A stretch of DNA of 64,000 nt from a bacterium UBA2214 (GTDB taxonomy: Bacteria; Zhuqueibacterota; Zhuqueibacteria; Residuimicrobiales; Residuimicrobiaceae), in NCBI GenBank assembly GCA_002327255.1, contig DCUM01000063.1:151-64150 (forward strand), read 5' to 3'. Below are positions 14,794 to 58,470 of the stretch, piece after piece. Positions within the stretch are counted from its first letter, which is position 1, and each line of letters starts with the position of its first letter. Under the pieces are notes generated by a model. The model did no database searches and was not told the DNA's origin. It saw nothing but the letters and a program-made list of their open reading frames with translations. The position numbers were made by a program, and so were the translations under genes.

Positions 14794-15984
14794 ATGTCCC
14801 TGCGCAAAACGCTCTATATGTTTTCCGGCACGCTTCGCGGTGTTTTCGTTCTCATGGTCCTTCTATGTATTTTTGCCATCCATTATTACATTCAGGGACT
14901 GGTCGAAGATTTGCGCAAGCAGTCGCGCGATATCGCGACCTTTTATGCGATGATCGTGCAGCGCCTTGGCACCGATGTGGATCAGCCGGAAGTGCTGAAC
15001 TGGTTGTTCGAAAATGTCGTCTTTCGAACGACCTTTCCCCTGGTGGTGACCGATAGCCAGGGGACCCCCAGCTCCTGGCAGGGCCTCAGCGTTCCCGACA
15101 CACTGCGCAGTGAGGAAGCCTTTCAGAAAGTCAAAGAAATCCTTAAAAAAATGCGCCAGGAAAATGAGCCGCTGCCCATCACCTACGAGTCACAGGTCAT
15201 CAGCTATCTCTATTACGGGGATTCCATCCTGATCACCAAGCTGCAGTATTTGCCGTACCTGACGTTGAGCGGATTGGGTCTGCTCATGCTGGTGGCTTTT
15301 CTCAGTTTCAGCAGCATCAAGAGCAGCGAACAGCGCTTCATCTGGGTGGGCATGGCCAAAGAGACGGCCCATCAGTTGGGAACGCCGATTTCCTCCCTGT
15401 TGGGATGGCTCGAGATCATGAAATCCGGGGATATCGACAAGCTCAAAAAAGCGCGTACCCTGGCGGACATGGAAGCGGATGTCAACCGCCTCGAAAAAGT
15501 CGCGGCCCGTTTTTCTCATATCGGTTCGGCCGCTCATTTGACGCCGCAGGATATCCACCAGCCCCTTCACGAAGTGGTGGAATATCTGCGCAAACGGCTG
15601 CCCAAAACCGGCAAAGAAACCCGTCTCGTGGAAAATTTCGGCCAGCTGCCGCCGGTGCCCCTGAATCGTGAGTTGTTTGAATGGGCGATAGAAAATCTCA
15701 TCAAAAATGCCATCGATGCCGCGCAGGGAAAAAAGGGGCTCATCGAAATCAATACCGGCATGCTTTCGGAAAAAAAGTTGTTTGTTGATATCCGGGATAA
15801 CGGCACAGGGATACAGGCCAAAAGACGACGGGACATTTTTAAGGCGGGGTATAGCACGAAAAAGCGCGGCTGGGGACTCGGATTGAATTTCACCAAACGG
15901 ATTATCGAAGAATACCACAATGGCCGCCTCTTCATCAAGGAGACCCACCCGGGAAAAGGAACCACCATGCGGATTATTCTATGA
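14794..15984 (+). CDS. Sensor histidine kinase (two TM helices, HisKA, HATPase_c)
   Basis: H-box HQLGTPISSLLGWLEIM, N-box NLIKNAIDA, and G-boxes DNGTGI and GWGLGLNF. Confidence 0.85.
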   Translation: MSLRKTLYMFSGTLRGVFVLMVLLCIFAIHYYIQGLVEDLRKQSRDIATFYAMIVQRLGTDVDQPEVLNWLFENVVFRTTFPLVVTDSQGTPSSWQGLSVPDTLRSEEAFQKVKEILKKMRQENEPLPITYESQVISYLYYGDSILITKLQYLPYLTLSGLGLLMLVAFLSFSSIKSSEQRFIWVGMAKETAHQLGTPISSLLGWLEIMKSGDIDKLKKARTLADMEADVNRLEKVAARFSHIGSAAHLTPQDIHQPLHEVVEYLRKRLPKTGKETRLVENFGQLPPVPLNRELFEWAIENLIKNAIDAAQGKKGLIEINTGMLSEKKLFVDIRDNGTGIQAKRRRDIFKAGYSTKKRGWGLGLNFTKRIIEEYHNGRLFIKETHPGKGTTMRIIL

Positions 15985-16733: not shown

Positions 16734-17498
16734 TCAATGCCGGTACGCTTCCGGCGTGCGCGGATATCGCACGGACGGTGCCACTGCGGGCCTTTCTGAT
16801 GGTGACTGGATGGAAGAGGATGGTTGTGAAGCCGTGCCAATGCGAACCCCCGCCTTCGATATATAAATCTCGACCCCTTCTCCATCTGCAGGCATAAACG
16901 GCTCGCTGCGGACGATGGTGACCACTGTCAGACCCAGCACCCCATTTATACGCTGGATTATTTGCCAGAGGCTGTTTGTAGTCCCCCCGGCCAATCGCTG
17001 TTCTCCCGCCTCTTTTTCATAGGGATCATAGCCGCGCAGGTGCGTCAGCCGGAACATCTGCGGGAAACCACCCTTAGCGAGCACACCTCCCCATTGCAAC
17101 CATTCAGCGTCCACGACAAAGCGCTCTCCCTTGAGCGCATATTCCCGGGATGTGCCCGGTTGTTTCCCTTCATACGGAGTATGCTCTATCCAATAGACGC
17201 CCGCCTGGGTTGACTGCTTTATGAAGGTGAGGCGCGCAGCCAAAACCTCGCCGCGTAACGGGGCATAGTAATAGAAACAGGAACCCCCATAAATTAAAAC
17301 GACCACCAGGAGCATCATCAGGGCCAGCTTTACCAGCGTCCATCGGAAAGAAGCGCTGCTTGCCGCTTTGCCCGCGGGCCTTTTCGCGTTGCCCGTCACT
17401 TTGCCCATGCCAAGCAGCAACTGGGCTGCCACCAGGCTAACCATAAAAAGAATGGCATAGACCACCCATGTATTCGTGTTTGCCATATTTCCCATCAC
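16734..17498 (-). CDS. Hypothetical membrane-anchored protein
   Basis: Two N-terminal TM segments and a low-complexity S/P-rich C-terminus. It abuts the SDR gene stop with no spacer, so the C-terminus is uncertain. Confidence 0.45.
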   Translation of the reverse strand: MMGNMANTNTWVVYAILFMVSLVAAQLLLGMGKVTGNAKRPAGKAASSASFRWTLVKLALMMLLVVVLIYGGSCFYYYAPLRGEVLAARLTFIKQSTQAGVYWIEHTPYEGKQPGTSREYALKGERFVVDAEWLQWGGVLAKGGFPQMFRLTHLRGYDPYEKEAGEQRLAGGTTNSLWQIIQRINGVLGLTVVTIVRSEPFMPADGEGVEIYISKAGVRIGTASQPSSSIQSPSERPAVAPSVRYPRTPEAYRH

Positions 17499-22315: not shown

Positions 22316-23379
22316 GTTCCTGAAAGCGTTTCCTTCACTTTATGATAGACGTCTTCAACCCGGATGGCCTCCATACAGGGGCTGTTGTGATTTTTACGGG
22401 AATCGCAAGTCGTGTTGCAGGGCGACGGCGGCAAGATCACCGCATCCGGCTGATGGTAAGGACCCCAGCGCCGCGGGGAACAAGCCGGTAGAGGACAGTA
22501 CAAACCAACGACTGCAGTTCCCATCGCGACGGCCATATGAAGCGGCCCGGTGCTGTTTGCGACCAAAAGCCGCGCCTGTTTGAGAAGCGCCAATAATTCC
22601 TTGATCTGCAATCGCCCATCCAGGCGAATAATGGGATTTTTCACCATGGCCGCCATTATGTCAACCAGTTGCATCTCTCTTTTGTTCCCGGTGACGACCA
22701 CTGCGCAACCCGATTTCTCCTGGATCATATCCGCTAACGCCGCAAAACCGTGCACCGGCCAATCGCTGGCAGATCCCCCGCTGCCGGGATGGAGCACCAC
22801 AAAGGGGTCTGAAGCGGACAACCCCATCTCCGCCAGCATGCTCCGCGTCTTCTCCATCGCGCTTGCCGGAACGCTGAGCGAAAACGAGATCATCTCTTGT
22901 GAGATGCCCAGCGGCTGCAACAGATCAAAATTCAAATCGAGCTCGTGGCGTCCGCTGCTTTTGCGATGCTGGTAAATTCTGCGGTTGAATAACAAGGAAT
23001 ATCCGCGGTAGCCCGTCCCGATGCGAACCGGGATTCGCGCCAGGCGGCACGCCAATGCCAGGCGAAAGGTCGGATGCAGAAGAATGGCAATGTCGAAACC
23101 ATGGCGACGTATCTCGCGAATGAGGCGTATCAAGCCCTTCAAGGAGCGGTGCTTGCCATCACGGTCGTCGCTCAAAATCAAATCAACGTCCGGATGCCCC
23201 TCCACCAGTTCGACGGTATAGGGGCGAAGCAGCACAGCGAGACAGCCCAGCGGAAAGCGCCGCCGCAACGCGGAAAAAACCGGCGTCGACAAAACAACAT
23301 CCCCGAGACGGTCGGTTCTGACGACCAGGATGCGCCGGGCCCCTTCCTGTGGGGATAAATTTGCGGAGGCCGTGTTCAA
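22312..23379 (-). CDS. Glycosyltransferase family 9 (LPS heptosyltransferase-like)
   Basis: N-terminal ILVVRTDRLGDVVLSTPV GT9 motif, and a C-terminal GPLHMAVAMGTAVVGLY motif. Confidence 0.8.
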   Translation of the reverse strand: MNTASANLSPQEGARRILVVRTDRLGDVVLSTPVFSALRRRFPLGCLAVLLRPYTVELVEGHPDVDLILSDDRDGKHRSLKGLIRLIREIRRHGFDIAILLHPTFRLALACRLARIPVRIGTGYRGYSLLFNRRIYQHRKSSGRHELDLNFDLLQPLGISQEMISFSLSVPASAMEKTRSMLAEMGLSASDPFVVLHPGSGGSASDWPVHGFAALADMIQEKSGCAVVVTGNKREMQLVDIMAAMVKNPIIRLDGRLQIKELLALLKQARLLVANSTGPLHMAVAMGTAVVGLYCPLPACSPRRWGPYHQPDAVILPPSPCNTTCDSRKNHNSPCMEAIRVEDVYHKVKETLSGT

Positions 23380-24014
23380 ATCGATTCCAGTACGGTATTG
23401 ATCTCCAGGCGCGAAATGCCGCCCTCGCGGAGTATCCGCACCGGAGTCCGTGTCACGTCGACAACGGTAGACGGGGTGCTGGAAGGCGTTTCCCCGCCAT
23501 CCACAATCAAATCCAACTGATCCCCAAAAATTTCCGCCACCTGGCGCGCGGTTGTCGCCGGCGCTTCGCCACTATGATTGGCACTGGTGGAAATGATGGG
23601 AAATCCGCAGGTCTTTAACAGGGAGAGGCATATGGAACAGTCCGGGATACGAATCGCAATGGTCTGCGAGCGGCGAAAGGCGGAAGATTGCAGGGTCACG
23701 GAAGACTTGAAAACCAGGGTGAGTGGCCCCGGCCAGAAATTTTCCATCAGTTTTTCTGCCGCTTCGGGAATGTCGCTCACCAGATCCCCGATTTGAATCG
23801 TATCGGCGGCAATGACGATGAGTGCTTTGCTCTGATCGCGGTTCTTGAGTTTATAGATGCGTTCCACCGCCGCAGTGGCAAACACATTGGAGCCAATGCC
23901 ATACACGGTTTCCGTCGGATAACCGATTACACCCTGGTTTTGCAAGACCCTTGCAGCGCGAAGAATCAGGTCTGTTTCGGGATGTTTGGGATTAATTTTG
24001 ATGATTTCGCTCAT
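23376..24014 (-). CDS. tsaC: L-threonylcarbamoyladenylate synthase (YrdC/TsaC type)
   Basis: YPTETVYGIG signature. 212 aa from the ATG at 24014. Confidence 0.85.
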   Translation of the reverse strand: MSEIIKINPKHPETDLILRAARVLQNQGVIGYPTETVYGIGSNVFATAAVERIYKLKNRDQSKALIVIAADTIQIGDLVSDIPEAAEKLMENFWPGPLTLVFKSSVTLQSSAFRRSQTIAIRIPDCSICLSLLKTCGFPIISTSANHSGEAPATTARQVAEIFGDQLDLIVDGGETPSSTPSTVVDVTRTPVRILREGGISRLEINTVLESI

Positions 24015-25056
24015 AATCCTTCTTTTGGTTGATGATATTAAGCGTTTCCTGGTACACTTCATCTACACGCAAGTGTATCATGCAGGCGTGTGTGCCGATC
24101 GGACAGCGTTCTCCGCCATGAATGCCACACGGCCGGCAGGGCAATTCGGTTTCGACCACGACAAAATGGTCGCTGTATGGCGCAAAGCCGAAACCGGGTA
24201 TGGTGGGTCCAAACAGCGCCACCATCGGCACATTGGCCGCGGATCCCAGGTGTAAAGGGGCACTGTCGTTGGCCACCAGAGCAGCTGCCCGGCTTAAAAG
24301 CCATGCCGCCTGCCTCAGGGTGAGCACGCCGGCGCTGTTGATCACCAGGCCCGGCACCGCGGCGGCGATGGCTTCGCATAATTCCCGGTCTTGGGAGCCC
24401 CCCAGCAATACGATGGCATAGCCGGCGCCACTCAACTTTTTAAGCAGTTTGTGATAATAGTCCGCGGGCCATCTTTTGGTCTTCCAAACCGATCCCGGTG
24501 CCACCGCGATAAATGACATGCCCGCCCTGTCAAGCGGCGCCAACAGGTGCACGACGAATTGCTGATCCTGTTCCGTCGCAAAGAGTTCCGGAAGGATTCT
24601 TCCGGCCGGACACGCCACACTCGCCAGCAGCGACAAATTGCGATCGATCTCATGTTGTGACCGAATATATCGCACCCGGTGTGAAAAGAGAAAGGCCCCG
24701 GCGCTGTTGCTGAATCCCACACGGACGCGTGCGCCGGAGCACCAGGCGATTAACGCGCTGCGCAGAGATCGGTGCGGAACCAGGACCAGGCCGTATTTTT
24801 CCCTGCGAACACGAGAACACATGCGAAAAAACCCGCGCCAGCCGGATTGTGACCCGCGCTTGTCATAGACAAGGACCTCATTCAGCGCGGGATTGTTTTC
24901 GACGATGTTTTGGGCGGCCGGAATCACCATGACATGAAGCGTGGCCTCTGCCGCACAGCGACGCACCGCTCTGATCAGGGGGGTGACCAGCACGACATCT
25001 CCGATAAATGCCGTCTGGATGATCAGGATTTTATGATGGGGCAGCTGTCGGATCAT
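23992..25056 (-). CDS. Glycosyltransferase family 9 (second heptosyltransferase-like)
   Basis: ILIIQTAFIGDVVLVTPL and GPLHLGSAANVPMVALFG motifs. Confidence 0.8.
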   Translation of the reverse strand: MIRQLPHHKILIIQTAFIGDVVLVTPLIRAVRRCAAEATLHVMVIPAAQNIVENNPALNEVLVYDKRGSQSGWRGFFRMCSRVRREKYGLVLVPHRSLRSALIAWCSGARVRVGFSNSAGAFLFSHRVRYIRSQHEIDRNLSLLASVACPAGRILPELFATEQDQQFVVHLLAPLDRAGMSFIAVAPGSVWKTKRWPADYYHKLLKKLSGAGYAIVLLGGSQDRELCEAIAAAVPGLVINSAGVLTLRQAAWLLSRAAALVANDSAPLHLGSAANVPMVALFGPTIPGFGFAPYSDHFVVVETELPCRPCGIHGGERCPIGTHACMIHLRVDEVYQETLNIINQKKDYERNHQN

Positions 25057-25961
25057 GGCGACTCTTTTCTGGACGCCAGCGGCGGGCTGGTTTTCCAGCG
25101 TTTATGCATCCAAAACCAGTGATCAGGATACGCACGGACCATGCGCTCCAGGGCACGGGCATGCCGTTGTGTTAATTCATGAAGATTCTCTGCCGTGGCG
25201 CCCTGCAGGTCAGCGTGTTCGATCGTTTCCAGATAGACCGTATGAAAACCCCGTGGATTTCTCACCGTCGCACAAAAAACAAGGGGCGCGCCGGTTTTCA
25301 GGGCGAACATCGCAGGACCCGCGGCTGTCGATGACGGCCGCCCCAAAAAATCCGCAAAAATGCCCTCTTTGTGTGCGTCCTGATCCGCCAATAAAAGAAT
25401 GAATTTATTCTCTTTCAAGGCTCGCAACACACCGCGCACCGCCACTCCCGGGGTGACCAGTTCCATGCCCATGCTGCTACGCGTCGTATGGATGTATTCA
25501 TTCACCAAAGGATTGCGCTGATCTCTCGCGATCGCCACCAGCGGCCCCCCATAACTGGGAATGGAGGCTGCCAGCGTCTCCCAATTGCCAAAATGCGCGC
25601 TGAGACAGATGACACCGCGCCCCTGCTGGCGCGCTTTTTGTAACAAATCCTCCGGAACGAAACGGACGCGTTCTCTGATTCCCCCGGCGCCCAATCGCGG
25701 CATCAAAATAAATTCGATGATATTTTGACCAAAATTTCGGTACGTGGCCCGTGCGATCTGCCGGATCTCTTTGATTCCTTTTTCGGGAAAGGCCCGGGTC
25801 AAATTGTCCAACACAACGCGTTTGCGGATGGGCACACAATAGTAAACAAATCTTCCCAGGCCCCGGCCAAATCCCAGGGCCCATCGATACGGCAACCACC
25901 CGATCATGCCGACCATCGTGCGGGCCAGATAATATTCCAGATAATTCTGAATTTTTTTCAT
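25053..25961 (-). CDS. Lipid A biosynthesis late acyltransferase (LpxL/HtrB family)
   Basis: AHFGNWE acyltransferase motif and an N-terminal membrane anchor, lying within the LPS operon. Confidence 0.8.
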   Translation of the reverse strand: MKKIQNYLEYYLARTMVGMIGWLPYRWALGFGRGLGRFVYYCVPIRKRVVLDNLTRAFPEKGIKEIRQIARATYRNFGQNIIEFILMPRLGAGGIRERVRFVPEDLLQKARQQGRGVICLSAHFGNWETLAASIPSYGGPLVAIARDQRNPLVNEYIHTTRSSMGMELVTPGVAVRGVLRALKENKFILLLADQDAHKEGIFADFLGRPSSTAAGPAMFALKTGAPLVFCATVRNPRGFHTVYLETIEHADLQGATAENLHELTQRHARALERMVRAYPDHWFWMHKRWKTSPPLASRKESP

Positions 25962-25991: not shown

Positions 25992-26969
25992 TCAATAGCT
26001 GTTTGCAGACGATGTATCTTCCTCCGGGGCGTCAGGCGGGTGCTCTTCTAACGCTTCGAGCGTTGCCGCGATGGCCTCTTCCGCTTGCCATTGCGCCAGT
26101 CTGCGGCGGTTACGGCGGCGCAGAGCGAAAACAGCCAACAGGAACAGCACCGGGATGCCCAGCCAGATCAATTCATCGCTCTCCGTCAACCAGTACCACT
26201 TTTGCGTCTCTTCAAGGTGGTTCAGCCACTCCTGTTCAAATCCGGACATCGTGCTGCCGGTGGCCTGCAAAAACAGGGCGTCCATATCTTCGCCGGCCTG
26301 ATAACCCGCGATGATATGTCTCATGGCATCGATGTCGTAGGTCGCCAACAGATAGCGCACCGCCGAATAGCTTTGTTGATAGGCCAAATCCGCTGATGAG
26401 CGCGCAAATTGCAGGACGTTGTCGATATCCTGCAAAGGAATGAGCGAGCCGGTCGCCAGGGCTTTTGAAAGGAGCGTCCGGTTTTCCCATTGCAGCTGTT
26501 CTGCATAAAAGAGGGCCAATCCTTCGTCGATCCACCGCGGCAATGCGCGTCCACCGCGCTGCTGGTAAAGAACCAGGTGTATCAACTCGTGCACCAGCGC
26601 CTGCCGGAAGGAGGCTTCCGGCCGATCCCATCGTGGCGAACGCACGACCATGGTGCGCATCCCGGGAAGGGCAAAAGCATGGGCCCACTCGGGCAAGCCT
26701 TGTTCGATGTGCCGGCGAAACGCCAGCCGGGAGGAGGCAATCACCACATGAACCGTGTCCCGGCAGACGATGCGGAAATCCGCACAGATTTCAATTCGTG
26801 CCGTTGCCAGGATGCGCAACGCCTGCCGCGCATGCGTGGAATCAACCGGACTGTAATGGATGCAGATGGTGGAATCACAGAGTATTTGACGGGAGATAGC
26901 GGGTGATGGCCGGCTCAGTACGGAAGAAAACAGACAAAGAAGAAGAAAAACAGAATAGCGATGAATCAT
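25992..26969 (-). CDS. Putative zincin (HExxH) metallopeptidase-like protein with a C-terminal TM and basic tail
   Basis: VHELIHLV (HExxH) plus a downstream IDEGLALFYAE glutamate, a signal peptide, and a C-terminal TM followed by RRRNRRR. Confidence 0.55.
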   Translation of the reverse strand: MIHRYSVFLLLCLFSSVLSRPSPAISRQILCDSTICIHYSPVDSTHARQALRILATARIEICADFRIVCRDTVHVVIASSRLAFRRHIEQGLPEWAHAFALPGMRTMVVRSPRWDRPEASFRQALVHELIHLVLYQQRGGRALPRWIDEGLALFYAEQLQWENRTLLSKALATGSLIPLQDIDNVLQFARSSADLAYQQSYSAVRYLLATYDIDAMRHIIAGYQAGEDMDALFLQATGSTMSGFEQEWLNHLEETQKWYWLTESDELIWLGIPVLFLLAVFALRRRNRRRLAQWQAEEAIAATLEALEEHPPDAPEEDTSSANSY

Positions 26970-26978
26970 CTGAAGTGC

Positions 26979-27338
26979 TCACTGAATGATGAGAAATTCC
27001 TGTACCGCAGAGCCCATCGCCTCAATTTGTTGTAAAGCCATCGCCCGCATGCAACCGGGCTGTTGCATATAGCACTCTTGCAGTTGACAATTTTTCAATT
27101 TAGCCGGGCATCCCCGGCTGAATTGCGCCTGGGACAACGAACGTAATCGCGCCTGGATTTCATCTTGCGGGAAGTGTCTTCCTTGCATCTTGATGCCAAA
27201 TTCCAGGGTCTTTTCCCAAACAAAACGGTGCACCAGCAAAAGATCGGTCGGCGGCAGCGGCTCAAGCACCGGTGTCAACGCTGTGCCGGTTAAAAGGGCG
27301 CGAAGGAGTTCCATTTTCAGGCTGATGGATAATAGCAT
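26979..27338 (-). CDS. Hypothetical small protein with a C-x6-C-x4-C-x6-C cluster
   Basis: 119 aa from ATG at 27338. GCPAKLKNCQLQECYMQQPGC lies downstream of the MglA-like gene. The longer track ORF (to 27521) would overlap that gene. Confidence 0.35.
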   Translation of the reverse strand: MLLSISLKMELLRALLTGTALTPVLEPLPPTDLLLVHRFVWEKTLEFGIKMQGRHFPQDEIQARLRSLSQAQFSRGCPAKLKNCQLQECYMQQPGCMRAMALQQIEAMGSAVQEFLIIQ

Positions 27339-27391
27339 TTTTATACCATTCCGGTTTGGCTGCGCCGTCGGGGGTATCCGGGGCAGCACGA

Positions 27392-27964
27392 CTATTCCAG
27401 TTTTTCGATGAGCAGATCCAGCAGCGTCACGACGACCTTGCGGACGCTGTCGGGTTTGTTGCTGCGGCAAAACATGAATTTGGTCATCGCGGACAAGCCG
27501 ATATGGGGGCGTATGGCGCATTCCGGGACTGGCAGGACACGATCTCCGATATCGGCGGCGATGATGAAGGGTGCATTGAAATAGCTGGAAGTAAACTCTA
27601 TGATCTCTTTGCTGCCGGCAAATGATTGATCATCAAACCAGTCAAAAATAACAATATAACCCAGCATCTTGCGGCCGACCAGGTCCCAGGCAAAGCCCTG
27701 GCCATAGCTGATCCCATAGCAGTACACCATCAGTTCCTCATGGATGGGCAAAGAGCCCAGAATGATATCCTGATTGGCTATTTCAACGCGCGGACAAAGG
27801 GCACTCAGAAAGGGTTGTTTCGCCGCGCCCGGGGGCCCGACGACCACGAGTTCTCCGACGCGCTGAACACCGCTCTCTTCTCGTAAACGATTCATATTGA
27901 TCTGGTTTCGGTCCTGTGACACATAGCCAGGCATCGTCTCTGGCCATGAGGGGCTGTGATTCAA
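27392..27964 (-). CDS. MglA/Ras-like small GTPase-fold protein with a degenerate P-loop
   Basis: G1-like VVVGPPGAAKQP (no S/T after the Lys), an intact G4 NKPD, and DW/FD beta-strand patterns. The start is uncertain (27964 or the ATG at 27895). Confidence 0.55.
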   Translation of the reverse strand: MNHSPSWPETMPGYVSQDRNQINMNRLREESGVQRVGELVVVGPPGAAKQPFLSALCPRVEIANQDIILGSLPIHEELMVYCYGISYGQGFAWDLVGRKMLGYIVIFDWFDDQSFAGSKEIIEFTSSYFNAPFIIAADIGDRVLPVPECAIRPHIGLSAMTKFMFCRSNKPDSVRKVVVTLLDLLIEKLE

Positions 27965-27968
27965 GCGA

Positions 27969-29168
27969 TTACTGGGCGAGAAGCCTCTGCCGGATTAATA
28001 ACAGGTCGCCGCGCTGTAAAAATATTTTATGGGTAATCACAGCCGGCGCGATCAGCTGCTGCTGTGCCGGAGATGTTTCATTCATCAGGAGAGACTTTTT
28101 TTTTTCGCCATTGCCCCGCTTAAAAAAGGATGCAATTCTTGAATAGGGGTCTTTATGCATCTCCCGCGCATGGGCAACACGCATCATGATATTTTGAGCC
28201 ATTATATCCTGAGAAGTGATGGCGGCGGCGTGCGCGGTGATCACGCCGCGCTCCAGCAGATTTTGCAGTGCTTCCAGTACGCGCAATTCATCATTTCTGC
28301 TGGCAGATATCAGCAGACGCAACGGTTGTGGCTTTCTCAGCAAGGCCAAAATCTGCCGCTCCAGGTCGCTCAGTGCTTCGGTTGCGATGTCGCTTTTACG
28401 GCTGAGTATGCTGTCCATCGGCGGCATTTGATTGGCACGCTCCTTATAGGCATGTATTCGCTGCGAACCGGAAACCAGCAATTCCCGGGTCGAGCGGTTA
28501 ATCTGGCGCGCCCGTTGAAAAGTTGAAATCTCCAAATCAAAATATCCGTGCAGCCACATCATCAAATTTTGCAAAGCCTCCTCGGCGCTTAAATCATGCA
28601 GTGCCGCGTCCACCACTTCGCCCTGCTGGATGTAGACATATCCCTCCTCCGGATCACGAAACAGGTGTATGATTGCCGACTTGTTGCCAAGCTCCAGCGT
28701 CTGGATGAGGTCCATGAGATTCATATCTTCCAAACTGCCGGTAAATCCATGCGTGCGTTGCAAGCCGCCCGTCTGACGTTCGAGCTCCTGAAGGATGGCA
28801 TCGACCCGAACCGCGACTTCTTCAGGATAATAAGGCTTTGCGATATAGTCATCAATGTCAAATTGCAATATTTTCAGCCTGTCTTCCAACTCGTTGACGC
28901 GCGCCAGCAAAATAAAGGGAATGTTTTTGCCCATGGGGTGTTCCCGGAGCTTGTGAAACAGGGAGATGCCATCGATGTTTTCCTGCGTGACCTCACTTAA
29001 AATCAATGCCGGCGGATGTTGAATGCAGAGATGGTAGGCGTGTTCACTATCCGAAACGAGCTCGGCATTTATCTGATAGTCCCCCAGCACCTTGATCAGC
29101 TGGGCCGTCTCAGAAGAAGCGAGATCGAGCAGGAGGAGCTTCGGGTGTTTTGTACTTCCATTGTTCAT
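27969..29168 (-). CDS. Response regulator receiver plus DUF4388 domain protein
   Basis: REC (KLLLLDLAS...DDYIAKPY) followed by DUF4388 (GSLEDMNLMDLIQTLELGNKSAIIHL). ATG at 29168 (MNNGSTK) avoids overlap with the upstream gene. Confidence 0.7.
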   Translation of the reverse strand: MNNGSTKHPKLLLLDLASSETAQLIKVLGDYQINAELVSDSEHAYHLCIQHPPALILSEVTQENIDGISLFHKLREHPMGKNIPFILLARVNELEDRLKILQFDIDDYIAKPYYPEEVAVRVDAILQELERQTGGLQRTHGFTGSLEDMNLMDLIQTLELGNKSAIIHLFRDPEEGYVYIQQGEVVDAALHDLSAEEALQNLMMWLHGYFDLEISTFQRARQINRSTRELLVSGSQRIHAYKERANQMPPMDSILSRKSDIATEALSDLERQILALLRKPQPLRLLISASRNDELRVLEALQNLLERGVITAHAAAITSQDIMAQNIMMRVAHAREMHKDPYSRIASFFKRGNGEKKKSLLMNETSPAQQQLIAPAVITHKIFLQRGDLLLIRQRLLAQ

Positions 29169-29184
29169 CCAATCACCCTCAGTT

Positions 29185-31341
29185 TCAGCGCGACGGCTTT
29201 GCAGTTTGTGCTGCAGACATGTTTTTGGTGCGTGGTTTGTTGGACCCTGTATCGAATAGACGAAAGACAATTCGCCGGGTGGTTTCAATCGACAGTTCAT
29301 GTACAAAATGCAGCTTATCCCTCTCCCGCAGATGCAGTTTTTGGCGGATACTCCCCTCATCCTGAGGATGCTGCAAATAATCGTTATAGGCGAATACGAT
29401 CATGGAGGGTGTAGATATCTTTTCGTTGAGTACCTGCAACAGATATCGGTAGTACCCCCAATCCACGCGCCGGCCATCGATCAGGAGAATATATCCCAAC
29501 AATGATTTTGAAAAATAATCGATGATGGGTGCGAATTCGTGCCTGAGCGATAACGCGACCAGATTGAGAAGATGCCCCCCCTTGAATTCCGCTGTTCCCA
29601 GACTCAGATCAGAAACCTGGGGCATGAAGGCAGCCTTTTGCAAAAGCTGCCCGGCCGTCAGACTCGATACCATCTGCCGGCGTAGATCCGAGTTGTTGCT
29701 GAGCACCAGAATAATGCCATGGGCGCGCTTGAAACGCTCCTGCAGGTATGTCTCCTCTTCAAGCGCATGAATTTCTGAATCGTCCGCCACTGCTTCGTAT
29801 AGACCGGGCGCCGATGGCGCATCCTTGCGCGGCGTTGGCTCAGCGTACGCCGGTTCCGGGAAATCGGGTGATGGGGGTTCCTCCTCCTCTGGCTCTTCGC
29901 TGTTGACATGCAATAGCGCATCGGCCGGATGCCGGGTTTCGAGCACCTGTAAATTGGGGAAAAGCGCGCCGCCATCCACATCCCGGCTTTCGTTAAAGAG
30001 ATCACGCCCTTCTTCGTCTGCATGGCGGAGATCGTAAAAGAGGTCCTTTTCCAACCCGGTGTCTCCCGTGAGAGTCGATAAATCGGGCGCGATCAGGTCG
30101 AACTCTTCCATTTCCATGACCGGGGGTTGGGAGGGATGCGGCACTCCGCTTTCCTGCAAAGGCTCAACCGCAAGCGGCTCTTCCGGTTCAATATCTTCCT
30201 CAACGGGGGAAAGCAACTGTTCTACACTTTCAGCCGTCCATTTGGTTTCAAAGGGAATGGCCGTTTCATCTGCGTCCGACCCCGGTGCGGGCTGCGGGAT
30301 TTCTCTCTTCGGGGGGGGGGCCGGCGGCACACGATGCAGCACAGGCTGTTCGCTCGCTTCCTCCTCTTCCTCCTCGGTCGCAGAAGCGGTGGATGAAAAA
30401 TCGCGCAAGGTGTGTAAAAATCCCAGCTCATAGAGTTTGCGGATGCGTTGCAGGGAGGTAATTTCGTCGTATTTGCTCTCGTCAATAATCCGCCCCAGCG
30501 TGCGCTCACCATCGAATAAAGAGACAAAATACTCGAGGTCTGCGGCAAGTGCCTTCCTGGCAATGATCTTTTTAAAATTGGCGGTGGTAACCAGGACGGC
30601 TTCCAGTGAGGGGAGGTATTTTAATACTTGTTCACGCTGTTCCATTCTCTTGGCTCCCTGCAATAACAACCCCATGTTACTGACGCCGATCTCGTCCGTT
30701 GTCTCTACCGGAGAAAAAAGCATGGAAAAACGGCCTTTCCTCCACGATATCATTTTGTAAACGGCTTCTTCGTTATGATGGAGACCTGTTGCGGCTTCGA
30801 CGACGGCGCCTTCGCGAAAAAAAACCCGTCCGGAGGCGCCGTTTTCACTGTACAGGCTCAGAACGCCCGTTTTCCGTTCCGCGCCAAAAGCTTCAATCAG
30901 TTCGACCAGCCCCAAATCCGCCAACGTTCCCATAAAATGAGAACGGGGTTTTATCTCATGGTGACGGTTGACGCGCGCAAGGATCATCTTCACCCGTGCG
31001 ATAATTTCGCGCACATGAATGGGTTTGATGATATAATCCTTTGCCCCCAGCTTAAAAGCCTTGACCCGGTTCCAAACATCACTCTTCTGCGTGAGAAAGA
31101 TGACGGTGCTGTCGCGGTTGAGCGTTGTTTTGAGGGATTGTTCGAGGATTCGATAACCATCGATGCCGGGGGCAGCAATTTCGGTAAGAATGGCAGAAAA
31201 TGCTTCTTGGCTGATTTTTTCCAACGCTTCGGCATCTGTGACTGACGCATCGACCTCGAAACCCGCTTCCATCAGATTGTTGCGCAGGATGCGAATGTTT
31301 TTAGGGTCTTGATCGATGAGAAGTATCTTTTGCGAAGCCAT
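29185..31341 (-). CDS. Response regulator receiver plus DUF4388, with an acidic/Pro-rich linker and a C-terminal degenerate GTPase-like domain
   Basis: REC (ILLIDQDP...DYIIKPI), DUF4388 (GTLADLGLVELIEAFGAERKTGVLSL), a roughly 200-aa E/P-rich low-complexity region, and a C-terminus with ILVLSNNSD, LLIDG and FAYND G-motif-like strands. ATG at 31341. Confidence 0.7.
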   Translation of the reverse strand: MASQKILLIDQDPKNIRILRNNLMEAGFEVDASVTDAEALEKISQEAFSAILTEIAAPGIDGYRILEQSLKTTLNRDSTVIFLTQKSDVWNRVKAFKLGAKDYIIKPIHVREIIARVKMILARVNRHHEIKPRSHFMGTLADLGLVELIEAFGAERKTGVLSLYSENGASGRVFFREGAVVEAATGLHHNEEAVYKMISWRKGRFSMLFSPVETTDEIGVSNMGLLLQGAKRMEQREQVLKYLPSLEAVLVTTANFKKIIARKALAADLEYFVSLFDGERTLGRIIDESKYDEITSLQRIRKLYELGFLHTLRDFSSTASATEEEEEEASEQPVLHRVPPAPPPKREIPQPAPGSDADETAIPFETKWTAESVEQLLSPVEEDIEPEEPLAVEPLQESGVPHPSQPPVMEMEEFDLIAPDLSTLTGDTGLEKDLFYDLRHADEEGRDLFNESRDVDGGALFPNLQVLETRHPADALLHVNSEEPEEEEPPSPDFPEPAYAEPTPRKDAPSAPGLYEAVADDSEIHALEEETYLQERFKRAHGIILVLSNNSDLRRQMVSSLTAGQLLQKAAFMPQVSDLSLGTAEFKGGHLLNLVALSLRHEFAPIIDYFSKSLLGYILLIDGRRVDWGYYRYLLQVLNEKISTPSMIVFAYNDYLQHPQDEGSIRQKLHLRERDKLHFVHELSIETTRRIVFRLFDTGSNKPRTKNMSAAQTAKPSR

Positions 31342-31695: not shown

Positions 31696-32340
31696 TTAGA
31701 CAATCAGGGCCTGGATTTTATCCATGACGCGCTGAGGCTTCTTCTTTTTACTCGCCACCGCCAAATAACAAAGTTGATTATGCAAATTCTCAAAATGGGT
31801 CAATGGAATTTTCGCAAAACCATAGCCGTTAAAAACCGGTTGTTGTCCAATCACCGGGAAAAATAGGGTCCATTGATCACAATTTTTATGACGTGGTGAC
31901 TGCAAAAAAAGCAAAAGTTCCTTGCGCTGGGGATCTGAATAGAGCATGATGCCGAAACCATCGCCGGGCAGATCAAAATCAATCAACTGACTTTTACTGC
32001 CATCGCCATTGGCTGCAAATGCCAGCGTCGCCAGAAAAGCATTTCCTGCGAATCCGCTATGGTTGGGTTGGGGGATGCATATCAACAGGCCATACTTGAC
32101 CTGCCGCGAGGCTCGATGTTTGGCATATTCTATCAGTTGGGGGGGGAAGGAGTTGTCGAGCTCCCGTGATAGCGTGGCATAGAATGCTCTGAAATGGCGG
32201 TATTTGCGCTGACAGCGCGGACAACGCGGAAGATGGTCTCTGATGATCGCTCTGGTTTTGTCCGCGGCCATCTCATCCAGAGTAAATAATTCGAGCTCTC
32301 GATTGCTGGGGCAGCCGCGTTTGAAATCATGCTCGCTCAT
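31696..32340 (-). CDS. Anti-sigma factor-like protein (zf-HC2 N-terminal domain)
   Basis: CPSNRELELFTLDEMAADKTRAIIRDHLPRCPRCQ matches the zf-HC2 putative zinc-finger of anti-sigma factors. Confidence 0.6.
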   Translation of the reverse strand: MSEHDFKRGCPSNRELELFTLDEMAADKTRAIIRDHLPRCPRCQRKYRHFRAFYATLSRELDNSFPPQLIEYAKHRASRQVKYGLLICIPQPNHSGFAGNAFLATLAFAANGDGSKSQLIDFDLPGDGFGIMLYSDPQRKELLLFLQSPRHKNCDQWTLFFPVIGQQPVFNGYGFAKIPLTHFENLHNQLCYLAVASKKKKPQRVMDKIQALIV

Positions 32341-32438: not shown

Positions 32439-33521
32439 TTACAACATTTCACACAAATATTTTCTAAATTCTTTTTTGGCCAGCTTGGCCAGATACTCAA
32501 AGACAGATCTTTCCTGCTGCCGGTACTCCTTTTGCGTCAGGCCGCTGATATAAAATTTGAGATTTTTATAATAGGAGGATGTGTCGCGTTTTTGAATCAG
32601 ATCGTAAAGCACATCGCGCAGGGCCTGATGATAGATGACGGCTTTGTCAGTATTCAATTTACGCGTGCGTAAATACTGCAAATCGAGCCGGGCCCAGATA
32701 CTTGCCATCACGACATCAATATATTCTTCCATCTCTTTGGTTTCCAGATGGTCCGCGGGGGTGGGCACATTTTCGTTGATGGTGATCTTTTCCCGGCAGG
32801 CATCAAATTTTGCATAACGTACCAGCTTGACCAGTGTCTCCAGAGAGACAAAATTTTGATACCCCTGCAGGGATGCCATGGAGAGCAAAAGTTTGCGAAT
32901 CGAGGCGGAAACAGAGTCGCTGGAATGAAAATTATCGAGAAACACTTTATAGATCAGCTCATCCTGCATGGGCGGCGCGCTGCGACGCAACTGCCGCTGC
33001 ATGGCGGCCGTCAATGAAAAAGATTCTTCCCATTTGGGAAACGTTCCCTGAAAGACAAACTCCTTGCCAAGCTCCCGGAAGATGTGCAAATCCGCCGCTG
33101 TGCGAATGGCCACTTTGATATTGCGGACAATCTTGGCGCCTTCCGGATCACGTTCGCGAAAAATGCGTGAAAGTTCCTGCTTGGTTTTTCTGACGATCAA
33201 TCTCCGCGTCAGAATCAGCACTTCCGCATCATCAATGACCGGCATTTCTGCAAACTTGCCCTCATAATACTTTTTCAGCTGGGTAAATTGTCCTCCCTGG
33301 TCGCGGCCGAAAAGCTCGGCGATGCAATCCATCGCCAAATCCGCCAGTTCCAGATCGGCCGCAAAGGAATGGCCACTGATTCGCTTGCCCAGCATCTCCT
33401 GGTACTTGAGGTAGCTCAGCGAGATCTTTTGCGCCAAATGTATATACTGAATCAGTTCCGCCTGGCTGTAGTTGCCCGAGCAAATACCGGTTACCAATTT
33501 CGTCAAGTTCGCAGTTTTCAT
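32439..33521 (-). CDS. Hypothetical 360-aa protein in the position expected for the cognate sigma factor; no family recognised
   Basis: Coding-like composition and synteny directly upstream of the anti-sigma-like gene. An N-terminal AADLELADLAMDCIAELF stretch is only faintly reminiscent of sigma region 2. Confidence 0.5.
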   Translation of the reverse strand: MKTANLTKLVTGICSGNYSQAELIQYIHLAQKISLSYLKYQEMLGKRISGHSFAADLELADLAMDCIAELFGRDQGGQFTQLKKYYEGKFAEMPVIDDAEVLILTRRLIVRKTKQELSRIFRERDPEGAKIVRNIKVAIRTAADLHIFRELGKEFVFQGTFPKWEESFSLTAAMQRQLRRSAPPMQDELIYKVFLDNFHSSDSVSASIRKLLLSMASLQGYQNFVSLETLVKLVRYAKFDACREKITINENVPTPADHLETKEMEEYIDVVMASIWARLDLQYLRTRKLNTDKAVIYHQALRDVLYDLIQKRDTSSYYKNLKFYISGLTQKEYRQQERSVFEYLAKLAKKEFRKYLCEML

Positions 33522-33899: not shown

Positions 33900-35288
33900 T
33901 TACCCCTTGATCATCGGCAGGCCATATTTCTTCGCTTTGCGATAAATCGTGGCGCGGCCGATACCCAGTTTTTTGGCGGTTTGCGAAATATTCCCTTCGC
34001 ATTCCAGCAGGGCCTGCCGCAGCGCCTCTTCCTCCAGTTTTTCAATCCAGCTGGCCAGTGTGTTATCGGATTCGTAAATGCGCTTTTCACCCAGAGAACG
34101 AACCGCGACGGGCAAATCCTTGGCGCTGATTTCATGGGTTACGGCCAGCACGACGGCTCTCTCCATGGCATTTTCCAGTTCCCGGACATTTCCGGGCCAA
34201 TTATAGGCCATCATCAGATCCAGCGCATCCGAGGAGATGCCTTCGATGGGTTTGCCTTCCTGCTTGCTGAACTTTTGCAGAAAATGCGCCGCCAGCAGGG
34301 GAATATCTTCCTTGCGTTCCCGCAGGGGCGGCAATTTGATGGGAAACACGGCAATCCGATAATAGAGGTCTTCGCGAAAATCACCGCGTTTCATCTCCTC
34401 TTCCAGATCCTTGTTGGTCGCGGAGATCACCCGTACATCCACTTTCACCAGTTCGTTTCCCCCGACGCGCTCGAACTCCCGTTCCTGAAGCACCCGCAGC
34501 AACTTGGATTGCGTCGCCGGCGTCATCAGGCCGATTTCATCGAGAAAAATCGTGCCGCCATTGGCCTGCTCAAACTTGCCCACACGCCGGCCCAGCGCGC
34601 CGGTGAAGGCGCCTTTTTCATGACCAAAAAGCTCGCTCTCCAGCAGCGATTCGGGAAGGGCGGAACAGTTCACCGCGACAAACGGATTTCCCGCCCGCGC
34701 AGAGGAATGATAATGAATGGCGCGCGCGATCAGTTCCTTGCCCGTACCGCTCTCACCATTGATCAGAACCGTCACATTGCTGTTGATCACTTTTTCGACC
34801 GAACGAAAGACTTCCTGCATGACGCCGCTCTGACCAATGATATTGTCAAACGTATATTTGCTGCGCAATTCCGAACGCAGCTCATCCACCTCGCGGCGCA
34901 GAGAACTGTTCACCAGGGCGTTGTTGACCGTGACGATCAGACGTTCCCGCGCAAATGGTTTGGTGAGAAAATCATACGCGCCCAATTTCATGCTGGTCAC
35001 CGCGCGCTCGATCGTCCCGTGCGCGGTCATCATGATCACCGGCAAGTGGGGATTGTCCTCTCTGATCTTTTGCAAGGTCTCGATGCCATCGATCCCCGGC
35101 ATCTGAATATCCAGTAAAACCAGATCGGGCGGCGTTTCCTTGATGGTTTTCAGGCAGGATTCCCCACTCAACGCGCTGTCTGTTTCGTAACGTTTTTCTT
35201 TACGAAGACTCGCCTCTATCATTTTGCAGATATTCTTATCGTCATCGACAATAAGAATGGTAGCTCTGTTCATGTTTTCATCAACCAT
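33900..35288 (-). CDS. Sigma54-dependent transcriptional response regulator (NtrC family: REC, AAA+, HTH)
   Basis: ILIVDDD REC, GESGTGKE Walker A, the GAFTGA sigma54-contact motif, and a C-terminal Fis-type HTH. ATG at 35288 has GGAG 6 nt upstream. Confidence 0.9.
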   Translation of the reverse strand: MVDENMNRATILIVDDDKNICKMIEASLRKEKRYETDSALSGESCLKTIKETPPDLVLLDIQMPGIDGIETLQKIREDNPHLPVIMMTAHGTIERAVTSMKLGAYDFLTKPFARERLIVTVNNALVNSSLRREVDELRSELRSKYTFDNIIGQSGVMQEVFRSVEKVINSNVTVLINGESGTGKELIARAIHYHSSARAGNPFVAVNCSALPESLLESELFGHEKGAFTGALGRRVGKFEQANGGTIFLDEIGLMTPATQSKLLRVLQEREFERVGGNELVKVDVRVISATNKDLEEEMKRGDFREDLYYRIAVFPIKLPPLRERKEDIPLLAAHFLQKFSKQEGKPIEGISSDALDLMMAYNWPGNVRELENAMERAVVLAVTHEISAKDLPVAVRSLGEKRIYESDNTLASWIEKLEEEALRQALLECEGNISQTAKKLGIGRATIYRKAKKYGLPMIKG

Positions 35289-35400
35289 GCAACGCTCCAA
35301 ACTTGACGGGGAGGTATCGATGCTTAACATAAGGCTGCTAAACTAATCATACCAAAATTTTCACAAAATAGCAAGCGTTTTTTGTCTTACTTTGATACAC

Positions 35401-40280: not shown

Positions 40281-42221
40281 TCACGCAATTTTTCGGATCT
40301 TGATGGTCTCGGTAATGTGCCGCATCAGTTCCAGCACATGTCCGGATATGTGGTGATCCACATCCACGACCAGATAGCCGATATGTTCATTGGTCTGCAG
40401 CATCTGGCCGGCGACGTTGATGCCGCGGCGCGCAAAAACGCTGTTGATTTTGGCCAGCACGCCCGGAACATTTTTGTGAATGTGCAAAATGCGGTGCGTT
40501 CCCGGCATGCGCGGCATGTCCACCTCGGGAAAATTGACCGCGCCCCGGGTATTGCCGGTACGCAGGAAGTGCACCAACTTATCGCTGACATAGAGGGCGA
40601 TATTCTCCTGCGCCTCCTCGGTGCTGCCCCCGATGTGCGGCGTGAGGATCACATTTTCCAATCCCTGCAGCGGACACGTAAATACCTCCACGGTATGGTT
40701 GGGCTCCTGCGGAAAAACATCGATCGCCGCACCCGCCAGACGCCCCGACTGGAGCGCCACCTGCAACGCCTCCATATCCACCACCCTGCCACGGCTGGAG
40801 TTGATCAGAAACGCGCCCGGCTTCATCCGTTGCAGTGCCGCAGCTCCGATCATGCCGCGGGTTTCCGGCGTATCCGGAACATGAAGCGTGACCACATCCA
40901 CCTGTTCGAGAAGGGCCGGGAGGTCTTTGGCGCGCCGGGCATTGCCCAGCGGTAATTTGTCGACGACATCGTGAAATACCACGGACATGCCGAGGTTTTC
41001 GAACAAGATCGATACCTGCGATCCGATGTGACCATAGCCGATGATGCCGACGCGCTTGCCACGCACCTCAGAACATCCGGCCGCCGCTTTGAGCCATTTT
41101 CCCTGATGCGCCGCCGCGCTCTTTTCAAAAATGCGCCGCATCAACATGATCGTCTCTCCCACCACCAGTTCGGCCACACTGCGCGTGTTGCTGTAGGGCG
41201 CATTGAAAACCGGAATCCCGGCTTTGGCTGCAGCCTCGAGATCGACCTGATTGATGCCAATGCAGAAGGCCCCAACCGCCCACAAGTCCGGCAGAGCGGC
41301 GATGACCCCGGCCGTTACGCGGCTTTGCGAGCGGATGCCGAGGAGGTGCGCCCCCTGTGCCGATTTAATCAGCCCGGACTCCTCCCAGCCGCCTTTGTGC
41401 GTCTCCAGCTCTACGCCGGATTCGCGCAGCAACGCCACCGCCTTGTCGTGAATATTTTCCAGGAGAATGGCCCGGGGCGTGGGCGCATCGGATTTTTCTT
41501 CCGCCTCATCCGTTTCAGCTTGTTGATGAGAATACTCGGCTTCCGAGAAAAAGAGCGGCAATAACTGGTTGAAACGTTCGATGGCAAAATCGGCCTGCTG
41601 GCGGATTTCCTCCAGCACCTGCGTGCCGGAAAAATAGACGAAAATCTGTGCGATATTGTTTTTACGCAACGAGAGATCGGTCGAACCATCCCCGACAACT
41701 GCGGTCCGTCCCGGCAGCCGGCCTTCGTTCTTGAGCTGCTCCGCCAGAAAGCCCTTGCCGACGCTGAAAAAGAGCGGATTGTTTTCATTGATGCCCATGA
41801 CCCGGCCGGTAAAATCGTAAATGAGCTGGTTTGAAAAAACGTGATCCCTGGGCACCAGCAGGGCATCGGTGACCGGACGGACGATCTCATCGAAACTGGT
41901 GCTGAAGATAAATATCTGCCTTCCCGCGCGTCGCAGGGCCTCGATGGTCTCCGCCACCATGGGGGTGATGGAATTCAGGATCAACGCGGCCGCTTTTTCG
42001 ACATCTGCACGCATGACGGGCGCCAATTGAAATCGCGTTCTCAAGGCCTCACCGAGCGGCATCTCGCCGTTGGTCGCCTTGAGGGTCAAATCGTGCAGTT
42101 GCGTCCGCAAGGCACCGGCTTGTTCCTCGCCCACCCTGGCCAGGGCATTTTCTATAATCAGCTCAACGCCCTCTGCGTTGATGATCGTAGAATCAAAATC
42201 GAATATCACATTGTTGATCAT
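40281..42221 (-). CDS. Bifunctional phosphoserine phosphatase (HAD) / D-3-phosphoglycerate dehydrogenase with C-terminal ACT (serB-serA fusion)
   Basis: N-terminal HAD motifs DFDST and GDGSTD, followed by a 2-hydroxyacid dehydrogenase domain (GIIGYGHIGSQV) and a C-terminal ACT. Confidence 0.8.
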   Translation of the reverse strand: MINNVIFDFDSTIINAEGVELIIENALARVGEEQAGALRTQLHDLTLKATNGEMPLGEALRTRFQLAPVMRADVEKAAALILNSITPMVAETIEALRRAGRQIFIFSTSFDEIVRPVTDALLVPRDHVFSNQLIYDFTGRVMGINENNPLFFSVGKGFLAEQLKNEGRLPGRTAVVGDGSTDLSLRKNNIAQIFVYFSGTQVLEEIRQQADFAIERFNQLLPLFFSEAEYSHQQAETDEAEEKSDAPTPRAILLENIHDKAVALLRESGVELETHKGGWEESGLIKSAQGAHLLGIRSQSRVTAGVIAALPDLWAVGAFCIGINQVDLEAAAKAGIPVFNAPYSNTRSVAELVVGETIMLMRRIFEKSAAAHQGKWLKAAAGCSEVRGKRVGIIGYGHIGSQVSILFENLGMSVVFHDVVDKLPLGNARRAKDLPALLEQVDVVTLHVPDTPETRGMIGAAALQRMKPGAFLINSSRGRVVDMEALQVALQSGRLAGAAIDVFPQEPNHTVEVFTCPLQGLENVILTPHIGGSTEEAQENIALYVSDKLVHFLRTGNTRGAVNFPEVDMPRMPGTHRILHIHKNVPGVLAKINSVFARRGINVAGQMLQTNEHIGYLVVDVDHHISGHVLELMRHITETIKIRKIA

Positions 42222-48514: not shown

Positions 48515-48537
48515 GGCACTATTACCTTTCTCGACCA

Positions 48538-58447: not shown

Positions 58448-58470
58448 TCGTTTATAATAAAGGGCTTGTT

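Follow-up and report, generated by a model that had tools for sequence, protein, structure and literature searches.

PATAN domains and prokaryotic proteins of the MglA family occur widely and are understood in few model systems, all of them linked to motility. Genes of the MglA family and of MglB have been found associated with PATAN genes (PMC4316618, Wuichet & Sogaard-Andersen 2015), an association that is credited there to Makarova et al. 2006. In Synechocystis, PATAN-REC regulators have PilB1 and PilC of the pilus motor as binding partners (bioRxiv 10.1101/2021.06.11.447907). The present work concerns a predicted operon of four genes, named g1, g2, g3 and g4, which encodes proteins of these families next to a gene for a Peptidase_MA_2 zincin. 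The genes lie on the minus strand of a stretch of 64,000 nucleotides from contig DCUM01000063.1 of bacterium UBA2214 (the window, whose numbering is used for all positions in it). The source is labelled candidate division KSB1, which is uncultured. The operon resembles the MglA/MglB module in that a gene for a small Ras-superfamily fold adjoins genes for PATAN-domain proteins; among true GTPases, those nearest to the KSB1 family have an MglA-type G3 motif, and MglA is their best solved relative. Unlike that module, the KSB1 operon has lost the G1, G3 and G4 motifs, has no MglB/Roadblock gene, and has a second copy of the fold fused to REC-PATAN. Its fixed partners are a four-cysteine (Cys4) helical protein and a membrane zincin, with no motility context.

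Cyanobacterial PatA-type regulators (PatA, PixG, PilG, PixE, LsiR) also carry PATAN and REC in one protein, and PATAN is known in them as a domain for protein interaction, with PilB1 and PilC as its partners. They differ from the KSB1 proteins in having PATAN at the N-terminus, whereas in g1 the REC domain (residues 6-118) precedes PATAN (138-236); in addition, the KSB1 acceptor Asp has become Glu, and neither a chemotaxis-like operon nor pilus genes are found nearby. FrzS of Myxococcus is a known pseudo-receiver. FrzS and plant pseudo-response regulators still use the receiver fold for interactions although the phosphorylation residues have been lost, and the same is proposed here; the KSB1 receiver is distinguished by its fusion to PATAN, by two paralogues per operon and by its combination with pseudo-GTPases. 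Eukaryotic pseudo-GTPases, such as CENP-M and the pG domains of p190RhoGAP, use a G-domain fold with degenerate motifs as a scaffold. A comparable scaffold use is proposed for the KSB1 proteins, which, unlike these, are bacterial, operon-encoded and of MglA-family descent. The actinobacterial conservon (CvnA-D) likewise joins an MglA-family protein with signalling partners in one operon, but its active GTPase, histidine kinase, Roadblock protein and DUF742 are all missing from the KSB1 operon.

The KSB1 operon therefore differs from what is known in the joint loss of both switch chemistries, in the duplication of a pseudo-GTPase fold with one copy fused to REC-PATAN, in an unrelated Cys4 helical protein standing in place of MglB, and in the fixed link to a membrane zincin. 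No description of an MglA-derived bacterial pseudo-GTPase, or of such a module, was found in the literature searched, the coverage of which was incomplete, and nothing relevant was found there on KSB1 and regulators.

A conserved five-gene module

The module begins with g1 (29185..31341, minus strand), of 718 amino acids in the list of open reading frames (ORFs) and in the public gene call alike. It continues on the same strand with g2 (27969..29168; 399 amino acids from an ATG at 29168), g3 (27392..27964; 190 amino acids from a TTG at 27964), g4 (26979..27338; 119 amino acids in the ORF list) and the zincin (25992..26969; 325 amino acids, PF13485). Two alternative starts are available for g3, an ATG at 27934 that gives the 180 amino acids of the public gene call, and an ATG at 27895 that gives about 167 amino acids and lies where the family consensus begins. 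The gaps measure 16 nucleotides between g1 and g2, 4 to 73 between g2 and g3 depending on the g3 start chosen, and 53 between g3 and g4. An earlier sequence-only reading of this DNA had listed four consecutive minus-strand genes, 5 to 54 nucleotides apart, the second of them a 400-residue REC plus DUF4388 protein. The gene set and the domains of that protein stand, and the gaps and the length are replaced by the values given here.

Conservation of the operon, which the same reading had put forward as a check, is borne out by related loci. The order g1-g2-g3-g4-zincin is found in 20 of 22 distinct loci, a set from which L003 (a duplicate of L002), L027 (a duplicate of the window) and the 936-bp L025 (g3 and g4 only) were left out. 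Of the other two, L019 shows g1 to g4 on a contig that ends after g4, and L005 is a locus in which g4 and the zincin were not detected. Identities of g3 and g4 fall to 24-30% without a break in the five-gene order. In L001 and L020-L022 the g4 stop and the zincin start overlap by 4-49 nucleotides. A longer order is common to most loci by tblastn, running from a sigma54 regulator through a 360-residue protein, an anti-sigma-like protein, g1-g4 and the zincin to an LpxL-like gene, and it holds even at 28% g3 identity.

The flanks vary more in some loci. ExbB/ExbD genes and unrelated upstream genes flank the module in L019, and an FGGY kinase gene and an unrelated protein of about 390 residues lie upstream of it in L020 and L021. 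In L026, genes for IMP dehydrogenase and S20 lie upstream and genes for an AMP-binding enzyme and EF-G downstream. The LpxL-like gene, and with it the GT9 and Sua5/TsaC genes, comes after the core in most loci, though not in L012 or L026. Because these two loci keep the core with no LpxL-like gene behind it, the constant neighbour of the module is the Peptidase_MA_2 protease and not the lipopolysaccharide (LPS) genes. The members of the protein searches that are named to phylum belong to KSB1, except one g4 homologue labelled Calditrichaeota. Among the titles of the 14 metagenome-assembled genomes (MAGs) of the genome scan, 6 name KSB1, 4 read 'bacterium', 2 name Cytophagia, 1 Actinomycetota and 1 Calditrichota, and the Cytophagia, Actinomycetota and Calditrichota labels are taken as binning or naming noise. 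What candidate division KSB1 has conserved is a module of five genes, g1-g4 together with the gene for the zincin.

Receiver and PATAN domains of g1 and g2

Both g1 and g2 match PF00072 (REC; E 1.6e-18 and 1.8e-11) and PF14332 (E 2.8e-17 and 6.2e-17) above the Pfam cut-offs. The latter family, DUF4388, is now named PatA_N and corresponds to the PATAN domain. The g1 receiver is encoded at 30988..31326 and the PATAN domain at 30634..30930, both on the minus strand. They are followed by a low-complexity linker (residues 326-540, 29722..30366) with 18% Glu, 14% Pro and 8% Asp and by a C-terminal pseudo-GTPase domain (residues 541-718, 29188..29721). Orthologues of g1 are 527-768 amino acids long, with a linker of varying length. 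In g2, a pseudo-receiver REC and a PATAN domain precede a helical or winged-helix-like C-terminal region; a short helical segment follows PATAN in both proteins and was judged winged-helix-like by eye. The 718-residue protein with REC, DUF4388 and a Glu/Pro-rich linker of about 200 residues had been proposed from the letters alone, and the profile matches and the linker composition agree with it, as they do with a DUF4388 relationship for both proteins.

The phosphorylation site was examined in a MAFFT alignment of 34 g1 and g2 orthologues with CheY and the canonical sigma54 response regulator of the window. At the position of CheY D57, the phospho-acceptor, both window proteins have Glu. The same residue is found in 17 of 18 g1 orthologues, the remaining one having Ala, and throughout the window's clade of g2. 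Of the 34 sequences that have a residue at the D13 position, 33 carry a different one (Q, L, P, K and others), which is Gln in the window's g1 and Leu in its g2. Other parts of the site have been kept: D12 is mostly retained, K109 is invariant, and T/S87 is retained in g1 and mostly retained overall, with Ala in the window's g2. In CheY-type receivers, Asp-to-Glu and D13K are classic non-phosphorylatable and sometimes activating changes, and plant pseudo-response regulators also have Glu at the acceptor position. On this alignment the receivers of the window's g1 and g2 are classed as pseudo-receivers. Since the acceptor Asp has become Glu and the second acidic residue is lost, the phospho-relay control that had been suggested for the locus is unsupported for the window proteins, and no histidine kinase is encoded in the operon.

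A family of predicted MglA-derived pseudo-GTPases

The g3 protein has no match in Pfam or NCBIfam, and a phmmer search of the PDB returned noise only. A search of 5.8 billion proteins gave 16 relatives of 161-180 amino acids, none with a Pfam domain. The AlphaFold2 model built from the alignment of g3 with this set (A1) has a mean predicted local distance difference test score (pLDDT) of 82.6 and a predicted template modelling score (pTM) of 0.77. In Foldseek, the top 50 PDB matches of the model belong without exception to the Rab, Ras, Rho or Rheb proteins (E about 1e-8, probability 1.00, TM about 0.6), and the A1 profile itself gives weak Rab matches in the PDB (E 0.005). Among 1.84 billion representatives, an exhaustive HMMER search retrieved 349 at E<=0.001. 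The closest of these, about 57 representatives (ranks 17-73), are mostly of 160-170 amino acids, and Walker A is present in 0 of the 51 with the P-loop position aligned. The remoter relatives are true GTPases, with the motifs GPxxxGKTTFI, GTPGQxRFxFMWEIL and AANKQD and with matches to the Pfam families ATP_bind_1, Arf and Ras.

An alignment of 23 of the true-GTPase sequences (A7) has Thermus MglA (3T12) as its best PDB match, at E 2.4e-13, with Arf-like proteins close behind. The G3 of the nearest true GTPases is of the MglA type, T-P-G-Q without Asp. Comparison of A1 with A7 by hhalign gave a probability of 99.86% and E 3e-31, and the small Ras/MglA-like GTPase fold that the sequence-only reading had seen in g3 is well founded on both the model and the profiles. 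For one true-GTPase relative, P0085, the gene context was considered as a source on PATAN association; no PATAN gene lies nearby, and the case is uninformative on the origin of the module.

The individual motifs have fared differently from the fold. The P-loop of g3 reads GPPGAAKQ and departs from the Walker A pattern (GxxxxGK[ST]) of G1; in the alignment of A1 with A7, GKT stands opposite AKQ. This loss of the Ser/Thr after the lysine had been noticed before. At G3, TPGQ is opposite ISYG, so that the catalytic Gln is absent, and at G4, NKQD is opposite D-I-G-D of 'AADIGD', which departs from [NT]KxD. The NKPD of g3, which had been taken for an intact G4, falls instead in the G5 region and is unique to the window sequence; other family members have SKPA or HKPA there. 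Similarly, WDLVG is no DxxG motif of G3; it aligns to the MWEIL segment, which lies behind G3. Across the pseudo family, Walker A is found in 0/67 sequences, the Pro-Gly of G3 in 1/72 and NKxD in 1/67, against 30/53, 53/90 and 38/86, respectively, in the farther relatives. The most conserved stretch of the family, FAWDLVGRKMLGY, aligns to the switch II region, which suggests a retained binding face.

By these comparisons g3 is classed as a pseudo-GTPase descended from MglA-type GTPases. The term 'MglA-like' is fair for its descent and not for functional membership. Switching between GTP and GDP is unlikely in the family, because G1, G3 and G4 are all degenerate across it, and the working, if degenerate, GTPase switch that had been envisaged is not upheld.

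A second copy of the fold lies at the C-terminus of g1. The last 185 or so residues of g1 from 14 loci (A3) align with A1 over 151 columns (hhalign 96.5%, E 8.3e-10); the window's g1 C-terminus matches g3 in BLASTP (E 5e-5), and A3 gives weak Sar1 and Rab matches in the PDB. In the window the domain has no P-loop or Walker A ('ILVLSNNSDLRRQ'), in agreement with the GTPase-related domain lacking an intact P-loop that had been described for this protein. The most divergent g1 orthologue, in L026 (4294-5877 of that locus), has 'VVGSESAGRS' at the P-loop, which is close to an intact Walker A but has Arg where Lys would be expected. Such a sequence hints at what the ancestor had and suggests that the domain lost its nucleotide site after it was fused to g1.

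The four-cysteine protein g4

The g4 protein contains a C-x6-C-x4-C-x6-C cluster (Cys77, 84, 89 and 96; 27051..27110, minus strand), as had been read from the sequence. The four cysteines are invariant in an alignment of 46 homologues at 21-73% identity, and the motif is found in 14 of 15 orthologues derived from the loci. A profile search gave 69 homologues, all of 118-134 amino acids and without a Pfam domain, and g4 itself has no match in Pfam or NCBIfam. Its AlphaFold2 model is all-helical, with five to six helices and a pLDDT of 87 that falls to 67-68 over the cysteine loop. No PDB match was obtained at E<1 in a fold search.

Two known classes were considered for g4 and rejected. A Roadblock/LC7 (MglB) protein would be alpha/beta, and g4 is all-helical and has no Pfam match. 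A zinc ribbon, which had been raised as a possibility, does not fit the cysteine spacing or the helical model, which lacks CxxC knuckles on beta hairpins. The absence of the usual Roadblock/MglB partner, also remarked earlier, agrees with a search of the operon, in which no Robl_LC7 domain was found in seven proteins at E<=0.1.

The zincin and the envelope genes

The zincin matches PF13485 at E 4.7e-21 (75.9 bits against a cut-off of 32.4). It has an N-terminal signal-like segment, an HELIH motif, a C-terminal hydrophobic membrane helix and an acidic tail of very variable length. Directly after the membrane helix, within the C-terminal 60 residues, lies a basic R-x-R-N-R-[RK]-x4-W-E motif that is present in all lineages, including the L026 orthologue at 30% identity. 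From this arrangement we infer a periplasm-facing predicted protease with a short cytoplasmic docking tail.

Downstream of the zincin, and on the strand of g1-g4, lie genes for an LpxL-like acyltransferase (25053..25961, PF03279), a GT9 heptosyltransferase (23992..25056, Pfam) and Sua5/TsaC (23376..24062, Pfam). From g4 through the zincin to Sua5 the genes are separated by 9-30 nucleotides or overlap, the LpxL-like and GT9 ORFs by 4 nucleotides. The co-oriented zincin-like, lpxL-like and heptosyltransferase genes of the sequence-only reading are in place by these Pfam assignments. The remainder of the window is an envelope and lipid super-locus, with LpxB, DUF374, LpxK, two GT9, DUF3108, glycosyltransferases, a TonB-dependent receptor-like protein, a LolA-like protein, PlsY and a FakA-DegV fusion. 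The tie to envelope genes, both physical and evolutionary, holds in this sense; LPS genes as the constant partner do not, given L012 and L026. Pilus, gliding and flagellar genes were not found among the roughly 50 window ORFs scanned, which leaves a polarity or motility switch without a motility context here.

Upstream of g1 there is an intergenic gap of 354 nucleotides. A terminator-like hairpin (31460-31443, minus strand) is followed by a sigma70-like promoter match, TTGACA-17-TACATT (31421-31393, minus strand), about 50 nucleotides upstream of the g1 ATG and the best of the region in a consensus scan. Both are pattern matches, and they are consistent with a transcript that begins at g1.

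Neighbouring genes in the window

Between the LpxK/LpxB lipid A genes and the module lies a sigma54-dependent response regulator (33900-35330, minus strand), in which D12, D13, D57, T87 and K109 are intact and whose identity among KSB1 loci is 82-93%. About 18 kb from it lies a histidine-kinase-like gene (HATPase_c; 14794-15984, plus strand), and a similar gene lies near the L002 locus. The 360-residue protein (32439-33521, minus strand) has 56-82% identity among KSB1 loci, above that of g1-g4, and no Pfam, NCBIfam or PDB sequence match. It adjoins a protein of 214 residues (31696-32340, minus strand) with a weak zf-HC2/anti-sigma-factor signature (NCBIfam, E 2.5e-5). Neither member of the pair occurs in L019-L021 or L026. 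The 360-residue protein was considered as a divergent sigma factor paired with the zf-HC2 protein, and a profile of 12 sequences, which included L019:2815-3888, later found to be unrelated, gave nothing in the PDB or Pfam; the idea was abandoned. The upstream genes were likewise considered as part of the core and set aside, because their counterparts in L019, L020 and L021 are unrelated by BLASTP to the 360-residue and anti-sigma-like proteins.

Elsewhere in the window, an ORF of 604 residues (48538-50352, minus strand) has Dak2, FakA middle and DegV domains and has the appearance of a fatty-acid kinase subunit fusion; the PlsY ORF (47864-48949) adjoins it, and the listed PlsY start overlaps it. 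An ORF of 646 residues (40281-42221, minus strand) combines HAD phosphatase, D-2-hydroxyacid dehydrogenase and ACT domains and resembles a SerB-SerA fusion. No Pfam match at E<=1e-5 was found for an ORF of 846 residues (58318-60858, plus strand) or for one of 254 residues (16734-17498, minus strand). Rfam and tRNA scans of the window were empty. PADLOC reported no defence system, one of its models being matched by the g1 REC domain only.

Discussion

The proposed function of g1-g4 is that of a constitutive cytoplasmic adaptor or scaffold, built of former switch proteins and independent of phosphorylation and of GTP/GDP exchange. The switch II-aligned segment of the pseudo-GTPases, FAWDLVGRKMLGY, would serve as a permanent protein-binding face. 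The complex would probably dock on the cytoplasmic tail of the zincin and control the placement or activity of this protease, which would tie it to outer-membrane and LPS assembly, for which the genes usually lie downstream, presumably on the same transcript. The Cys4 site of g4 appears to be the only obviously signal-sensitive element left, and it may bind a metal or sense the redox state and so gate assembly.

These parts are held with different confidence. The description, which covers what domains there are, which switch residues are lost, the core of five genes and the zincin tail motif, is very probably right. To the whole reading, a scaffold independent of phosphorylation and nucleotide and tied to an envelope protease, a probability of about 45% is given, and it is accordingly offered as tentative. 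Docking on the zincin tail and sensing by g4 are each doubtful as separate steps. The fullest version, in which an undescribed MglA-derived pseudo-GTPase family would occur twice per complex with two pseudo-receiver PATAN proteins and, gated by Cys4, would control an envelope-remodelling zincin, is put forward with the same reserve; it would provide PATAN with a role beyond pilus motors.

Among the explanations that compete with the scaffold, one holds that the pseudo-GTPase domains bind GTP, ATP or another ligand without hydrolysis and that their occupancy is the signal. Some eukaryotic pseudo-GTPases bind nucleotide without hydrolysing it, and the well-preserved g3 fold, the Walker lysine of the close family members and the GSESAGRS of L026 g1, near Walker A, would suit such a role. 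This explanation is nevertheless unlikely, as no member has Ser/Thr behind the lysine, 33 of 51 members of the wider pseudo family have lost the lysine itself, and G3 and the NKxD of guanine specificity are lost. The explanation first suggested for the locus, a phospho-relay to two response regulators that acts through a degenerate yet switching MglA-like GTPase on polarity or surface motility, is quite unlikely. It could draw on the known proximity of MglA and MglB genes to PATAN genes (PMC4316618) and on the binding of PATAN-REC regulators to the type IV pilus motor of Synechocystis (bioRxiv 10.1101/2021.06.11.447907). The receivers, moreover, retain K109 and T87 (Ala in the window's g2), and the window's clade retains the Walker lysine. 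It has to contend, however, with the Glu at the acceptor position and the lost D13 equivalent, with the loss of G1, G3 and G4, and with an operon that has no kinase and no Roadblock/MglB protein by Pfam, its g4 being all-helical. No motility gene, furthermore, is present among the scanned window ORFs.

The g1 and g2 proteins might instead be transcription regulators, which would bind DNA through their PATAN and winged-helix-like parts and adjust the downstream envelope operon, with the pseudo-GTPases and g4 as cofactors. DNA binding was predicted in the original description of PATAN, as related in bioRxiv 10.1101/2021.06.11.447907, both proteins have the winged-helix-like segment seen by eye, and the genes head an envelope operon. 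The Synechocystis study itself argues against DNA binding by PatA-type proteins (bioRxiv 10.1101/2021.06.11.447907), no DNA-binding Pfam domain was found in g1 or g2, and the fixed linkage to the zincin in L026, which has no LPS genes, would be left unexplained, so that this role is very improbable. An equally slight chance is given to the view that g1-g4 lie next to the zincin and LPS genes through gene order inherited within one phylum, with no functional meaning and with the target of g1-g4 encoded elsewhere. The KSB1 names of the phylum-named proteins (with one g4 homologue labelled Calditrichaeota) and of 6 of 14 MAG titles, and the synteny of neighbouring housekeeping genes, would agree with inheritance. 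Yet the flanks differ in L019-L021 and L026 while g4 and the zincin stay adjacent wherever the contig extends, and the start-stop overlaps of these two genes in L001 and L020-L022 point to co-translation.

Several observations weigh against the scaffold as proposed. The Walker lysine is kept in 14 of 16 members of the window's clade, and weak nucleotide binding is possible there, as residual binding is in the L026 g1 orthologue. Deep-branching KSB1 g2 sequences retain Asp at the acceptor position, and phosphorylation may survive in them. In the L008/L009 lineage the cysteine segment of g4 is cleanly deleted while the rest of the protein and of the operon is kept, so that the cluster appears to be dispensable there, and a metal or redox role for g4 is guessed from its four conserved cysteines. 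The named members come from a single candidate phylum, and the synteny could partly be inheritance. Finally, scaffolding and docking are steps that we infer.

The impact of the finding is limited by an uncultured phylum and by a function that is predicted from sequence. For annotation, it gives reason for caution, as the names "response regulators" or "GTPases" would imply activities that are probably absent from these proteins. The operon is compact and its conservation deep, and it appears to have abandoned both Asp phosphorylation and GTP hydrolysis, with the folds kept under selection. If the scaffold reading is true, it would provide a clear bacterial case of pseudo-enzyme scaffolding and tractable proteins for finding the binding partners of PATAN.

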